From: Myxococcota bacterium
GTDB taxonomy: Bacteria > Myxococcota_A > UBA9160 > PR03
Reading direction: 5' to 3'
Length of the DNA stretch: 64,000 nt
Assembly (NCBI GenBank): GCA_041611735.1
Contig: JBFIML010000001.1
Coordinates: forward strand, 64,001 to 128,000
Below, piece after piece: positions 5,671 to 54,080 of the stretch (positions are counted from its first letter, which is position 1; every line of letters starts with the position of its first letter). A program made the translations under genes and the position numbers. The notes beneath the pieces were generated by a model that was not told where the DNA came from, searched no databases, and was given only the letters and a program-made list of their open reading frames with translations.

Positions 5671-6639
5671 CTAGGGCGTCTCGACCGCGGCCAGCACGGC
5701 TTTCACCACGTCATCCGGGCGCAAGCCGTCCGCCTCCGCCTCGTACCCGAGCAGGACGCGGTGGCGGAGCACGTCGGGCGCCACGCGCTTCACATCGTGG
5801 GGGTTCGCGTAGTCCCGTTCGTCCAGGAGCGCCCGGGCCCGTGCGGCACGCACCAGGAAGAGCGAGGCCCGGGGAGACGCCCCGGTGGCCACCGGGGCCG
5901 CTCCCGCCTCGAGACGCGCCAGCCGGGCCCCCGCCTTCAGCGGGTCCCGGGTGGCCCGCACCAGACGCACCGCGTAGTCGGCGACGGCCGGCGCCACGTA
6001 CACGCGGGCCGTGCGCTCCTGCAGCGCGACCATCCGCTCGGCGTCGGTCACCGGCTGCACGTGCGTTGGTCCCGCGGCGTCGCGATCCACGATCTCGAGC
6101 TCCTCCTCCAGGGAGGGATAGTTCACCACGAGCTTGAGCAGGAAGCGGTCGATCTGGGCCTCCGGCAGCGGATAGGTCCCCTCCAGCTCGATCGGGTTCT
6201 GGGTGGCCATCACGAAGAAGGGGCGCGGCAGCGGGAAGGTCTCGTCACCGATGGTGGCCTGCCGCTCCTCCATGGCCTCGAGCAGGGCCGACTGCACCTT
6301 GGCCGGCGCGCGATTGATCTCGTCCGCCAGCAGCACCGGGGTGAAGATCGGGCCCCGGTGCACCGCGAAGCGGCGCTCGTCGGGCAGGTAGATCGGGGTC
6401 CCGAGCAGGTCGCCGGGCAACAGATCCGGTGTGAACTGGATGCGCCGGAAGCCGAGCCCGAGGGCCTCGGCGAGGGTACGCACGGCAGTGGTCTTGGCGA
6501 GCCCTGGCACCCCCTCCACGAGCACGTGTCCCCCGGACAGCAGGCCGATCAGGAGCCCCTCCAGCAGGTCGCGCTGACCCACCAGGACACGGCCCACCTC
6601 GTCCAGCAGACGCTTCACGGTCGCCTCGTCGGCGCTCAT
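5671..6639 (-). CDS. moxR: MoxR family AAA+ ATPase
   Basis: Walker [21 protein letters not shown], Walker [16 protein letters not shown]...[10 protein letters not shown]. Confidence 0.95.
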
Positions 6640-32738: not shown

Positions 32739-33094
32739 AGCATCTGCTGCTGCGCCTCGAGCCGATCATCTGGCTGCTCTTCGGGGCTGGAATCCTGGTG
32801 GGGACCCTGCTCCTGCCGGGCTACCTGCTGACCGTCACCCTGGCCGGGCCGCTCGGGATCCTTCCCGCGGACGCGCTTTCCTACGACCGGGCCTACGCCA
32901 TCGCGGCAAGCCCCCTCGGGCGCCTCGTCCTGCTCGGTCTGATCGCGCTTCCGCTCTGGAAGGGGGCCCACCACCTGCGCTCCCTCTGGATCGACCTGGT
33001 GGGGGCCTCGAGCGAGGCCGCCGTGGCCACGCTGCTCTACCTGGTGGCCCTCGTGGGGAGCGTCCTGGGCCTCCTGGCGGTGGTCGGCCTCTGA
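32735..33094 (+). CDS. frdD: Fumarate reductase membrane anchor subunit D
   Basis: EPIIWLLFGAG, PLG..ALSY, LPLWKGAHHLR match the FrdD pattern. Confidence 0.85.
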   Translation: MKHLLLRLEPIIWLLFGAGILVGTLLLPGYLLTVTLAGPLGILPADALSYDRAYAIAASPLGRLVLLGLIALPLWKGAHHLRSLWIDLVGASSEAAVATLLYLVALVGSVLGLLAVVGL

Positions 33095-33154
33095 GCTGCG
33101 CTTGACGCCTCCCGGCCCGTGCTTAGGCATGGAGTCCAAGGAGGTCGACGAGCC

Positions 33155-33643
33155 ATGGCACTTCCCAGTGTGCTTCGCCGGGGACGCAACCGCGACGTCC
33201 CGGTGCGCCGGAGCGAGGATCCGTTCTGGTCGCTCCAGAACGAAGTGAACCGCCTGTTCGAGGACTTCTGGCACGGAAGCGGCTTCGGCTTGCCCTTCTT
33301 GGCCGAGCCCTCGCGCTTCCACCCGAGCATCGACGTCGCCGAGACCGAGAGCGAGGTCCGGGTGACCGCGGAGCTGCCGGGCCTCGAGGAGAAGGACTTC
33401 GAGCTGCACCTGGCCGGCGACCAGCTCATGATCCGCGGCGAGAAGCGCACGGAGCACGAGGAGAGCGGGCGCGGCTGGCACAGCGCGGAGCGCGCCTTCG
33501 GCAGCTTCCAGCGCGCGATCCAGCTGCCGTGCGAGGTGGACGCCGACAAGGCCTCCGCCGAGTACAAGAACGGCATCCTGACCGTGCGCCTGCCCAAGGT
33601 CGCCCAGGCCCAGGCACGCCGCATCGACGTGAAGTCGGGCTAG
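33155..33643 (+). CDS. Hsp20/alpha-crystallin small heat-shock protein
   Basis: PSIDVAET, AELPG, ERAFGSFQRAIQLP, AEYKNGILTVRLPK; SD AAGGAGG. Confidence 0.95.
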   Translation: MALPSVLRRGRNRDVPVRRSEDPFWSLQNEVNRLFEDFWHGSGFGLPFLAEPSRFHPSIDVAETESEVRVTAELPGLEEKDFELHLAGDQLMIRGEKRTEHEESGRGWHSAERAFGSFQRAIQLPCEVDADKASAEYKNGILTVRLPKVAQAQARRIDVKSG

Positions 33644-33663
33644 GGTCCATCTTCCGACGCATC

Positions 33664-33695
33664 GGGGCCGGCGCCGCGCTGGCGGCGCCGGCCCC
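33664..33695. terminator. 14-bp GC hairpin between convergent genes (possible bidirectional terminator)
   Basis: GGGGCCGGCGCCGC-GCTG-GCGGCGCCGGCCCC. Confidence 0.6.
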
Positions 33696-33726
33696 TCCTG
33701 TACGCAGCCCGGGTCCGCGCGGCCGG

Positions 33727-34170
33727 CTAGCGATGCCTGCGCCCGTCCCGCCGGCCGTGATGCCCGTGTCGCTCGGACCGCTGGCGGTCGTGCCGGAAGC
33801 CGTGCCGATCGTGCTTGCCGCGGTGCAGGCGATACCCGAAGCCGTGCCGGTCGTGCTTGCCCCGGTGCAGGCGATACCCGAAGCCGTGCCGGTCGTGCTT
33901 GCCGCGGTGCAGGCGGTAGCCGAAGCCGTGCCGGTCGTGCCTGCGGTGGTGCCGGCGTTGCCAGAAGCCATGCCGGTCGTGCTTGCCGTAGTGGTGCCGC
34001 CCGTGCCGCAAGCCGTGCCGGTCGTGGCGCGCGTGCGCCCGGTACGAGTCGCTGTCGTCGTCCGCGTACCGGTGGCCGGCCTGGGCGGCGGGCGCCGCCA
34101 GGAGCGCCAGACCGAACACTGCGCTGAGCAGCCCGGCGCCTGTCGTGAGTCGCTTCCTCGACATCGTCAT
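33727..34170 (-). CDS. Secreted His/Arg-rich tandem-repeat protein (147 aa)
   Basis: C-terminal part of ORF 33727..35247 from MTMSRKRL; Sec signal ending AQA, then six HDRHG motifs. Confidence 0.75.
   Translation of the reverse strand: MTMSRKRLTTGAGLLSAVFGLALLAAPAAQAGHRYADDDSDSYRAHARHDRHGLRHGRHHYGKHDRHGFWQRRHHRRHDRHGFGYRLHRGKHDRHGFGYRLHRGKHDRHGFGYRLHRGKHDRHGFRHDRQRSERHGHHGRRDGRRHR
33796..34026. repeat. 42-bp tandem repeat (about 5.5 units) inside the His-rich gene
   Basis: Unit GAAGCCGTGCCGGTCGTGCTTGCCGCGGTGCAGGCGATACCC at 33796, 33838, 33880; diverged units at 33922, 33964 and about 34010. Confidence 0.9.
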
Positions 34171-34250
34171 GGGTTGACCCCCGTATCGTGGTTCCGAGGG
34201 CTTGGACGGCGGCGTGCTGGTGCTATTCGCTGTACGCAAGGGCGCGATGG

Positions 34251-35396
34251 TCAGGGACCCGTCGAGAACAGGCGTTCCGCGAGTTTGCGCCGGTGATGGG
34301 TGGCGTCGCCCAACAGTGCACGGCTCCACAGTGCCCGCCTCATGTAGAGGTGCGCATCGCACTCCCAGGTGAAGCCGTAGCCGCCGTGGAGCTGTACGGC
34401 CCGTCGTACCGCATCGGAGAACACGTCGCCGGCGAGCGCCTTGGCCATGCGCACGACGGGCTCGGCCTGCGCAGGGGTCCGATCCAGGCCGGCGCCGGCC
34501 GCCAGCGCGAGGCTGCGCACCAGCTCGACCCCGATCAGGGTGTCCACGATCGGGTGCTTCACCGCCTGGAAGCTCCCGATCGGACGCCCGAACTGGACGC
34601 GCTGGATGGCGTAGTCGCGGGTCAGGAGCAGGGCTCCCTCGGCGCCCCCGACCATCTCGGCTGCGAGCGCCGCCGCGCCTCGTACCAGGACCTCGTTCAG
34701 CGCCGTCGCTCCCTCGCCGTCGAGTCGGGCGTCGGCGGGAACGCGCACGCCTTCCAGGGTGACCCGCCCGCTGCGGCGTGTGGCGTCGATGCCGGTCTCC
34801 GGATCGATCACGAGGCCCGGGCACGGTGGCTCCACCACGAAAAACGCGAGCTGGCCGTCCGGCTCGCGGCACGGCACGACGAGCAGGTTCGCACTGGGCG
34901 CCGCGAGCACCTGGATCTTTCGGCCGCGCAGTACGAAGCCGCCTTCGGCGGGCTCTGCGCTGGTGCAGAGGGCGTCGGCCTCGAAGGCACCGCCCGGCTC
35001 CAGGAGGGCGAGCGAGGCGATCGACTCGCCGGACGCAATGGACGGCAGCCACCGCTCGCACTGCCCGGCGCTCCCGGCGTGCTCGAACGCGAAGCCCGCC
35101 AGGAGACAGGCGAAGAATGGGGAGGGCAGCAGACTCCTCCCCATTTCGTCGAGGAGCAGGGCCAGGGGCAGGTGTCCCAGGCCGGCCCCGCCGTGGGCTT
35201 CCGGGAAGGCGAGCCCGACCCAGCCGAGTCGGCCGATCTCCCTCCACAGCGTCGGGTCGAACCCCGACGGCTCTTCCATCCAGCGCCGCACCTCTGCCGG
35301 CGGGCAGCGTTCCGCCAGGAAGCGCTGCGCCTCGCTGCGAAGCAACACGTGCTCCTCGGTCACGCCGAAGTCGAGGGGAACGTCGAGACCCGCCAT
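34251..35396 (-). CDS. Acyl-CoA dehydrogenase, short partner subunit of a heteromeric pair
   Basis: From MAGLDVPLDFG; RVQFGRPIGSFQAVKH, QLHGGYGFTWE; lacks the CQGFSEP motif. Confidence 0.88.
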   Translation of the reverse strand: MAGLDVPLDFGVTEEHVLLRSEAQRFLAERCPPAEVRRWMEEPSGFDPTLWREIGRLGWVGLAFPEAHGGAGLGHLPLALLLDEMGRSLLPSPFFACLLAGFAFEHAGSAGQCERWLPSIASGESIASLALLEPGGAFEADALCTSAEPAEGGFVLRGRKIQVLAAPSANLLVVPCREPDGQLAFFVVEPPCPGLVIDPETGIDATRRSGRVTLEGVRVPADARLDGEGATALNEVLVRGAAALAAEMVGGAEGALLLTRDYAIQRVQFGRPIGSFQAVKHPIVDTLIGVELVRSLALAAGAGLDRTPAQAEPVVRMAKALAGDVFSDAVRRAVQLHGGYGFTWECDAHLYMRRALWSRALLGDATHHRRKLAERLFSTGP

Positions 35397-35404
35397 GGCG
35401 CCGC

Positions 35405-36631
<1,227 letters not shown>

Positions 36632-53168: not shown

Positions 53169-53621
53169 ATGGAGATCAACGGCATCGCCCACGTCATGCT
53201 CACCGTGAGCGACTTCGCGGCATGCCGCGTCTTCTACGGCCGGCTGTTGCCCGAGCTGGGCCTGAAGCCCGTCCTCGACGTGGAGGGCTGGTACTACTGC
53301 GTGGGCGGGCGCACGGCCCTGGGCATCCGGAGCTGCGCGCCGGAGCACGCGGGCGAGCGCTTCGACCAGACCCGCGCCGGTCTCCATCACATCTGCTTGC
53401 GGGCTCGCAGCCGCGAGGACGTGGACGCCCTCCACGGCCTGCTCCGGGAGATGGGTGCCCGGATCGTCCATCCCCCGGAGGAGGGGGCCTGGGCTCCGGG
53501 CTACTACTCCATCCTCTTCGAGGATCCCGACGGGACGCGCCTCGAGATGAACTTCGTGCCCGGCAAGGGCCTGCTCGAGAAGGGCGCCGACGGCAGTACG
53601 CCTCGAATCAGGACGGGCTGA
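53169..53621 (+). CDS. VOC/glyoxalase family protein
   Basis: GIAHVMLTVSD, GLHHICL, YYSILFEDPDGTRLE; SD AGGAGG. Confidence 0.9.
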   Translation: MEINGIAHVMLTVSDFAACRVFYGRLLPELGLKPVLDVEGWYYCVGGRTALGIRSCAPEHAGERFDQTRAGLHHICLRARSREDVDALHGLLREMGARIVHPPEEGAWAPGYYSILFEDPDGTRLEMNFVPGKGLLEKGADGSTPRIRTG

Positions 53622-53651
53622 ATCGCGTCCAACTCGGTCAAGGAGGGTTCC

Positions 53652-54080
53652 ATGCGACGATCCAGGCTCGGCTCCGTGCTCGGTCTTGCAGGCGCGCTGC
53701 TGGCGCTCTCGCTGCTGGCAGGCTGTGCCACCAAGCGGCCGGTCCTCTATCCGAACGAGCACCTGCGCTCGGTGGACGAGGAGCGGGCTCGTTGGGACGT
53801 GGACGAGTGCGTCCGTCTCGCCAAGCAGTATGGCGAGTCCGAGAGCATCGCCGGCAATGCTGCCGAGAGCGCGGCGGTGGGCGGCGCCGCGGGGGCCGCG
53901 ACCGGAGCCGTCGTGGAGGGGGTGAGCGTCGGCCGCGGGGCAGCGGCCGGGGCCGCCGGCGCCGGAGCGGCGAGTGTGATGCGCGGAGTCTTCCGCAAGC
54001 GCGATCCCGATCCCATCCAGCGCCGCTACGCAGAGCGTTGCCTGCGCGAGCGAGGGTACGAGACCATCGGCTGGCGCTAG
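53652..54080 (+). CDS. Glycine-zipper lipoprotein
   Basis: Lipobox LAGC; GGAAGAATGA glycine zipper; CLRERGY. Confidence 0.85.
   Translation: MRRSRLGSVLGLAGALLALSLLAGCATKRPVLYPNEHLRSVDEERARWDVDECVRLAKQYGESESIAGNAAESAAVGGAAGAATGAVVEGVSVGRGAAAGAAGAGAASVMRGVFRKRDPDPIQRRYAERCLRERGYETIGWR

Follow-up and report, generated by a model that had tools for sequence, protein, structure and literature searches.

Exported, disordered proteins dominated by a single type of residue are emerging as a simple means of buffering in the periplasm, with SilE serving for silver and MrpX for hypochlorite. SilE uses histidine and methionine residues for Ag(I) and Cu(I). ZraP, Spy, and CpxP are small, folded, helical periplasmic stress chaperones that contain LTXXQ motifs and are induced by envelope or metal stress, with ZraP also having His-rich ends and binding Zn. 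In eukaryotes, histatins and the His-rich region of histidine-rich glycoprotein bind metals and polyanions in a pH-dependent manner. We analyzed a 64,000-nucleotide (nt) stretch of a Myxococcota contig (hereafter, the window), which comes from a marine metagenome and belongs to a host genome that is 95% complete. A minus-strand open reading frame (ORF) at positions 33727 to 34170 of the window translates to a His- and Arg-rich protein of 147 amino acids, designated here P0001. We found, from its genomic position, that P0001 is orthologous to a family of exported His-rich proteins and that it has lost the zinc-finger module of this family and amplified a 14-residue unit. It resembles SilE/PcoE, MrpX, and ZraP by design and is a member of none of these groups.

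SilE and PcoE are intrinsically disordered metal sponges of the periplasm (PMC5008109). They are Sec-exported, are made under stress, and carry many repeated short metal-ligand motifs, features that P0001 is predicted to share. There is no sequence relation between them, with P0001 matching no Pfam or NCBIfam model at E ≤ 10. Unlike SilE and PcoE, the mature chain of P0001 contains neither Met nor Cys and is strongly cationic, and its gene lies outside a metal-efflux operon. MrpX (PMC4436054) belongs to the SigF/NrsF regulon and is a methionine-rich periplasmic peptide; P0001 differs from it in having His rather than Met, in that no partner repair enzyme was found, and in its putative control by an RpoE/SigW-like sigma factor instead. 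The differences from ZraP, Spy, and CpxP are that P0001 has no match to the LTXXQ Pfam model and no predicted helix beyond its signal peptide.

The mature chain of 116 amino acids comprises 27 His, 30 Arg, 18 Gly, and 12 Asp residues with zero Cys and zero Met, corresponding to approximately 23% His and 26% Arg, with ten HxxH pairs. Aromatic residues account for 10% and Gly for 16% of the chain, and the computed net charge is approximately +23 at pH 7 and approximately +42 at pH 5.5, with an isoelectric point of 11.7. The cationic His/Arg/Lys/Gly/Tyr composition is like that of histatins and histidine-rich glycoprotein, to which P0001 shows no homology. The case for a histatin-like precursor of cationic antimicrobial peptides, cleaved to 14-mers, is one of composition only, and we consider such a role highly improbable in view of the neighboring genes, which include no peptidase, modification enzyme, dedicated exporter, or immunity gene, and of the family members described below, which are single proteins with a folded tail rather than multi-core precursors.

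The minus-strand ORF is a genuine gene under selection. Its G+C content at codon positions 1, 2, and 3 is 0.78, 0.50, and 0.92, respectively, in a genome with a G+C content of 72%, a pattern that is as expected for a coding frame and speaks for this ORF over the overlapping plus-strand one. The coding sequence (33727–34170, minus strand) is open throughout and includes a TAG stop codon at 33727–33729, and a candidate Shine-Dalgarno-like GGGGG run, read from the sequence, is located at 34178–34182 on the same strand, 7 nt 5' of the ATG. A long ORF of 255 amino acids does exist on the plus strand (33529–34296), such shadow ORFs being frequent in high-G+C DNA. That it is the real gene instead, or that the locus is noncoding, is barely credible, however, given that the plus-strand frame would have a third-position G+C content of 0.78 and a first-position value of 0.92, the inverse of a coding pattern, that it overlaps the hsp20 gene, and that the orthologous genes at this site retain the minus-strand frame with a signal peptide. 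The noncoding reading of 33727–34170 was rejected on the basis of the codon G+C pattern and the frame kept by the orthologues. An earlier note on this DNA, prepared without database searches, had proposed a real gene in the minus-strand frame and had named orthologues conserving the opposite-strand frame as counterevidence. The third-position G+C content of 0.92 and the synonymous changes of the repeat described below support the gene, and the orthologues keep the minus-strand frame and the signal peptide. All counts in that note, including a 31-residue signal peptide, a DDDSDS patch, a mature chain of 116 residues with 27 His, and six HDRHG motifs, were reproduced by script.

Searches with P0001 as the query retrieved no relatives. 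A word-indexed search of 5.8 billion proteins yielded no match, and a full HMMER scan of 1.84 billion representatives yielded two, both of which were false matches due to low complexity. There was no match among metagenome contigs, two matches among genome contigs were both off-frame within other genes, and the protein matched only itself in 40 related genomes. Across 193 genomes of the order, the doubled HDRHG DNA pattern matched at a single foreign site, which lies within a transporter-like ORF but off-frame, and the ESM Atlas returned unnamed clusters only, with scores of ≤0.86. The exact protein, in two start variants, was absent from a collection of 15 billion proteins. A match to an already characterized family, which the earlier note had also listed as counterevidence, was not found in Pfam, in NCBIfam, or among PDB sequences. 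P0001 is therefore a sequence orphan in these searches, yet it is no true orphan, in that relatives were found through synteny.

We fetched hsp20 regions from seven genomes of the same bacterial family and tested gene order by tblastn with the neighbors of the P0001 gene in the window. The order frdABCD-hsp20-[slot]-acad1-acad2, in which acad1 and acad2 encode acyl-CoA dehydrogenases, was conserved across the seven loci. In six of the seven relatives the slot was filled by a gene on the same strand that encodes a signal peptide, an acidic stretch, and a low-complexity region rich in His, Arg, Gly, and Tyr (L037:6754–7239, minus strand; L038:6432–6869, plus; L039:7255–7710, minus; L040:7381–7914, minus; L042:5677–6495, plus; and L043:7419–7877, minus). 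The low-complexity region is highly variable in length and sequence and is followed by a conserved tail of approximately 55 residues. In the remaining relative (L041, genome G006, 6288–6355), the slot between hsp20 and acad1 measures just 67 nt and the His-rich gene has been lost. Two other bacterial families of the order contributed three more loci with a gene of this kind downstream of their acad1 orthologue.

In the family tail, a hydrophobic stretch comes after the pattern Y-x-C-x2-C-x3-F-x5-F/L-x2-H-x3-H. A profile built from 22 members matched classical C2H2 fingers in the PDB, including those of PRDM9 (E = 4.9e-6) and ZBTB17 (E = 1.4e-5). To a relative's tail, AlphaFold2 with an alignment assigned a strand-strand-strand-helix arrangement and a terminal helix, with predicted local distance difference test (pLDDT) values of 80 to 91, and residues 29 to 105 were disordered. 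Pfam zinc-finger matches of the tail were all below threshold. A Foldseek search of the relative's model against the PDB gave nothing at E ≤ 0.001, with the top ranks occupied by zinc fingers over 25 to 30 residues at E > 1. On the basis of the profile and the model, the tail appears to be a C2H2-zinc-finger-like module.

The family (alignment A4) is without any Pfam or NCBIfam model. Of 193 genomes of the order, its profile detected members in 32, and the genome of the window itself (G000) is not one of them. Searches for the family yielded 24 database proteins, for which the sole functional name is one automatic JGI label referring to copper resistance, and the family was absent among the best-ranked matches in the literature on exported bacterial His-rich disordered proteins and exported prokaryotic C2H2 fingers. 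This undescribed parent family is the more unusual object, a C2H2 finger behind a signal peptide being itself unusual.

P0001 shares with the family its slot position, its extracytoplasmic function (ECF) sigma-type promoter, and the combination of a signal peptide, an acidic patch, and a His/Arg-rich region. The C-terminal CxxC...H...H module and the hydrophobic helix are absent from P0001, which has no Cys, as is the classical C2H2 pattern C-x2-4-C-x12-H-x3-5-H with a beta-beta-alpha fold. In a six-frame translation of G000, a regular expression for the zinc-finger module had zero matches and a hidden Markov model (HMM) of the module had none at E ≤ 10; as a positive control, this HMM found 24 of 24 loci outside the set from which it was built. 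In the closest relative, neighboring proteins are 66% to 88% identical to those of the window, and at the DNA level the two loci align in the 5' untranslated region, along the signal peptide and the acidic patch, and at the terminator hairpin. In this alignment, the first perfect repeat unit of P0001 falls opposite the relative's segment H-D-R-S-H-G-I-V-Y-G-Y-G, just N-terminal of the finger, which suggests that the repeat unit may have arisen from this segment. The low-complexity part of P0001 contains 25% His and 28% Arg, compared with family ranges of 9% to 29% and 8% to 30%, respectively, and is thus within range but at the cationic end; its net charge per residue is +0.23, compared with +0.02 to +0.19 in 22 members. 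Enrichment in His is the sole compositional feature retained across very divergent family members. With regard to the earlier interpretation as a whole, a real, selected gene with export features and without a predicted fold stood up, whereas relatives do exist by position and the ECF-type promoter had gone unseen.

The HDRHG motif begins at residues 49, 64, 78, 92, 106, and 120 of P0001, and the array of six units that bear it spans 33772 to 34026 on the minus strand, as delineated with a repeat finder and script counts. Three consecutive identical copies of the 14-mer HDRHGFGYRLHRGK, starting at residues 78, 92, and 106, are encoded by near-identical DNA units at 33898–33939, 33856–33897, and 33814–33855, and the older, diverged units are located at 33985–34026, 33940–33981, and 33772–33813, all on the minus strand. 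Tandem Repeats Finder (TRF) described 33796–33988 as 4.6 copies with a period of 42 bp, 89% matches, and a score of 302, compared with scores of ≤145 for in-gene arrays of the family genes examined. Short in-frame tandem repeats with periods of 6 to 36 nt are common in the low-complexity regions of the family, indicating that repeat turnover is its normal mode and that the array in the window is the largest of those examined. Among these, L056 contains a 97-nt in-gene array with a TRF score of 145, which exceeds that of a 129-nt in-frame array of Arg/His/Asp-rich units at a contig edge (L071, genome G156, positions 1–129; score of 111).

Between the three identical units, three nucleotide sites vary, each of them a third position at which the change is synonymous. 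Given that synonymous changes make up 24.6% of the possible single substitutions in the unit, the probability of three of three by chance is approximately 0.015. In the three older units, the 15-nt HDRHG core accounts for only 2 of 34 differences from the young unit, and neither of the two alters the protein (binomial P = 5.8e-5), indicating that the core itself, beyond the frame, is maintained by selection. The 42-bp repeat with three identical protein units and solely synonymous differences that the earlier note described was confirmed with TRF and by codon comparison, and selection on this frame, which it had argued for, is borne out by the three of three synonymous sites and the P value for the core.

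The segment 33911–34394 was found unchanged in contigs from three public marine-metagenome runs belonging to two studies. A 1,448-nt contig from one run and a 166-nt contig from a second run of the same study cover the stop codon, the C-terminal tail, and the last repeat unit, so that the C-terminal end is no assembly artefact; both carry a single variant, 33760 A>G, which changes CAT to CAC and thus His to His, and the longer contig alone extends across the hairpin into hsp20. All public contigs, which come from four runs, break within the near-identical units, those of three runs at 33850–33911, and the count of three identical units is therefore supported by the assembly alone.

These data also bear on the possibility that P0001 is a decaying remnant, functionless since loss of the module, with an array inflated by slippage and a codon bias and signal peptide that are merely inherited. 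The C-terminal module is missing not only from P0001 but from the rest of the genome, the slot is empty in one related genome, and the exact protein did not recur in the 15-billion-protein collection. Decay nevertheless seems distinctly unlikely: the ORF is intact, the promoter, ribosome-binding-like run, signal peptide, and terminator have been kept, the young units differ from one another at three sites only, which like the single population variant are synonymous, and the HDRHG core is preserved in older, otherwise diverged units at the P value given above.

An ECF-sigma-type promoter is predicted at 34202–34230 on the minus strand, with a -35 element GCGAAT (34225–34230), a 16-nt spacer, and a -10 element CGTCCAA (34202–34208). 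The motif ends 31 nt from the ATG and has one match in the window, compared with 0.06 expected. A scan for consensus sigma-70-like promoters found none in 33400–34500. By eye, the motif (G/C)CGAAT, 16 nt (17 in one case), CGTC(C/G)(A/G)A was recognized upstream of the slot gene in seven of the seven genomes first examined. In other bacterial families of the order, 17 of 24 further loci had the motif upstream of the His-rich family gene, with approximately 1.5 expected by chance, and within the bacterial family of the host, 10 of 16 genomes had it upstream of the sigma-factor orthologue. Genome-wide, the strict motif had seven matches, compared with zero in a reversed-sequence control. Six of these precede the P0001 gene, an ECF sigma gene, and genes for a class A PBP1, a DUF4126 protein, a cytochrome c, and an uncharacterized exported protein, and the seventh has no ORF downstream. 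The loose form CGAAT-N16/17-CGTC had 41 matches, compared with 3 in the control, and those with the same -10 extension add lolA, a DUF937 protein, a type I phosphodiesterase, and a lipoprotein. Several uncharacterized exported proteins are encoded behind the strict and extended loose matches.

The sigma gene (G000 contig C36:21918–23153; L074, L075, and L085) is preceded by CGAAT-N17-CGTCCAA. Its product passes the cut-off of the NCBIfam sigma70-ECF superfamily model and is closest to the RpoE and SigW models, and an overlapping anti-sigma gene encodes a protein of 167 amino acids with an HxxxCxxC motif and one membrane helix. Hallmarks of ECF systems named in a review (PMC8103513) are AAC at -35, CGT at -10, a cotranscribed anti-sigma gene, and positive autoregulation. 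The motif shared with the sigma gene and with envelope genes, together with its conservation at orthologues, places the P0001 gene, by inference, in an envelope-stress ECF regulon as a conserved member.

Two further occurrences of this motif were observed. A second copy in the window (53604–53632, plus strand, CGAAT-N17-CGTCCAA) lies 19 nt 5' of an ORF (53652–54080, plus strand) for a lipoprotein-like product of 142 amino acids with an LLAGC lipobox and no confident family. In addition, G000 contig C44:4614–5129 (minus strand; L084) encodes a second exported His-rich protein of approximately 155 amino acids and unrelated sequence, with up to 19 His per 50-residue stretch and six distant unnamed homologues; a near-consensus motif, GCGAAT-N17-GGTCGAA, was noted by eye upstream of its gene.

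The predicted signal peptide of P0001, MTMSRKRLTTGAGLLSAVFGLALLAAPAAQA, comprises residues 1 to 31 (34078–34170, minus strand), with n-, h-, and c-regions that were read by eye as a basic RKR-containing segment, a hydrophobic core, and an AXA cleavage motif, A-Q-A followed by G. Residues 12 to 31 align with the signal region of the family at a probability of 90% according to hhalign. The acidic patch DDDSDS (residues 37–42; 34045–34062, minus strand) lies just past the predicted cleavage site, an acidic stretch is present at the equivalent position in family members, and a BLASTP comparison with the closest orthologue yielded 14 identities in 22 positions across the cleavage site and the patch (E = 0.001). 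The charge of the early mature region is known to affect export, and the patch probably offsets the very basic chain, allowing its passage through Sec. The host has genes for LpxC and three Omp85/BamA-family proteins and is thus diderm, so that the predicted export would reach at least the periplasm. The export suggested in the earlier note is thus backed by Sec-type features and by the diderm envelope. A Tat signal and a lipoprotein were ruled out by the lack of a twin arginine and of a lipobox Cys, respectively. A single-sequence AlphaFold2 model of P0001 showed a helix at signal residues 6 to 24 only, with pLDDT values of <50 elsewhere, in line with the absence of a fold also claimed in that note; the model, weak taken alone, is consistent with a disordered mature chain.

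The earlier note had offered as candidate roles those of a metal or heme binder, a polyanion-binding or coacervating protein, and a peptide precursor. We tentatively favor the view that P0001, a remodeled family member, is a disordered His-rich protein of the periplasm that is induced by envelope stress and most likely buffers divalent metals. In favor of this reading, His enrichment is the one property kept throughout the family. Ligand sets of His and Asp without Met or Cys suit Zn, Ni, and Cu(II) over Cu(I) and Ag(I). In such a scheme, the 80-nt gap that follows the acyl-CoA dehydrogenase pair would hold an ECF-sigma-type promoter dedicated to the P0001 gene, the transcript would end at a G+C hairpin common to the P0001 gene and hsp20, and the product would be exported via Sec and cleaved after AQA. 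The resulting soluble periplasmic protein, induced by envelope stress, would use its histidines to buffer or capture divalent metals (Zn, Ni, Cu(II), and Co) with low affinity and high capacity, and its charge would depend on pH. In the 22 low-complexity regions of the family, His is mildly clustered (z of 2.6 to 3.0 at spacings of 1, 2, 3, and 5) with no preferred His-His spacing, and there is therefore no evidence for a defined site.

Several points weigh against a metal buffer. No metal-homeostasis gene adjoins the P0001 gene or lies within the predicted regulon, which resembles one for general envelope biogenesis, and a chain with a charge of +23 and 30 Arg residues should repel cations. 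To our knowledge, characterized bacterial metal sponges are not polycations. The one folded module that the family conserves is gone from the copy in the window, and the whole gene is gone from one relative, losses that together indicate that the gene may be dispensable or decaying. With regard to regulation, the -35 element contains AAT rather than the canonical AAC, the C36 sigma factor is the putative cognate factor on the strength of the shared motif alone, and no RNA run is listed for this organism among the public runs. The assignment of export, finally, is a judgement of signal features made by eye.

Some of these points would suit a polycation that is induced by stress and, in the periplasm, coats or cross-links anionic components of the envelope, such as phospholipid head groups, peptidoglycan, periplasmic glucans, or lipopolysaccharide in transit or, if released, extracellular DNA or polyphosphate. 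The histidines would render such binding pH- or Zn-dependent, possibly via coacervation. The charge and isoelectric point of the mature chain given above fit this picture, as do its 10% aromatic and 16% Gly residues, an aromatic- and Gly-rich pattern being known from phase-separating proteins, and the predicted regulon, with lolA and the PBP1 gene, is one of envelope biogenesis rather than metal handling. Across the family, however, it is His enrichment that is conserved and not a polycationic character, as is apparent from the per-residue charges of the 22 members, and we regard this alternative as unlikely.

Histidine is highly reactive with singlet oxygen and hypochlorous acid. P0001 might thus instead serve as a sacrificial scavenger or proton buffer, with its histidines either consumed by singlet oxygen, hypochlorite, or reactive carbonyls or buffering acid. 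The model for such a function would be MrpX (PMC4436054), the design of which P0001 appears to share: a sigma/anti-sigma-controlled, exported, low-complexity protein with one reactive residue. The HxxxCxxC motif and single membrane helix of the anti-sigma factor would fit, and the marine metagenome source suggests exposure to light. On the other hand, neither a repair enzyme nor any gene linked to oxidants was observed within the predicted regulon, and nothing connects oxidants with the C36 sigma factor, leaving a scavenging role quite improbable.

P0001 would constitute a histidine/arginine version of periplasmic buffering with a regulatory handle, an ECF sigma promoter in common with lolA and the PBP1 gene. 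It illustrates the evolution of such proteins, in that in-frame amplification of a repeat took the place of the folded tail. It also provides a natural experiment on the role of the disordered His-rich part alone and on the share of orphan status that is due to low-complexity turnover. A bolder and rather doubtful proposal is that the exchange of the folded zinc-finger/helix module for a tandemly amplified, disordered, selected HDRHG array turned a probably membrane-associated protein into a soluble periplasmic polycation, the charge and self-association of which switch with pH or Zn, and that the order-wide family represents an extracytoplasmic, eukaryote-type C2H2 finger under ECF-sigma control. 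If this were true, P0001 would be a bacterial counterpart of histidine-rich condensate-forming proteins, functioning as a metal sponge or an envelope glue.

The P0001 gene is flanked on the plus strand by frdABCD and hsp20 and on the minus strand by two overlapping acyl-CoA dehydrogenase genes and a SnoaL-like gene upstream. The convergent neighbor is the Hsp20/alpha-crystallin gene (33119–33643, plus strand; PF00011, E = 1.2e-21). Between the two convergent genes lies a hairpin with a perfect 14-bp G+C stem and a 4-nt loop (33664–33695, not assigned to either strand), in agreement with the strong hairpin that the earlier note had placed after the stop codon. A rule for terminators with a T-run gave it no score and found none in 33400–34500, and an Rfam search of 33000–35000 returned merely two sub-threshold chance matches. 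A G+C-rich hairpin of different sequence was present at the equivalent place in all six relatives read, and that in the window is likely a bidirectional terminator without a U-tract.

The upstream neighbor on the same strand is the second gene of the acyl-CoA dehydrogenase pair (34251–35516, minus strand; stop codon at 34251–34253, start uncertain). As listed, the two ORFs of the pair (34251–36631, minus strand) overlap by approximately 110 nt and are preceded by the SnoaL-like gene; they may form a heteromeric dehydrogenase pair. Acyl-CoA dehydrogenase genes are recurrent neighbors of the family. In five loci of another bacterial family of the order (L051, L060, L062, L063, and L068), a His-rich/zinc-finger gene does not lie downstream of acad1 and is arranged head-to-head with a paralogous acyl-CoA dehydrogenase gene, the product of which is 43% to 45% identical to acad1.

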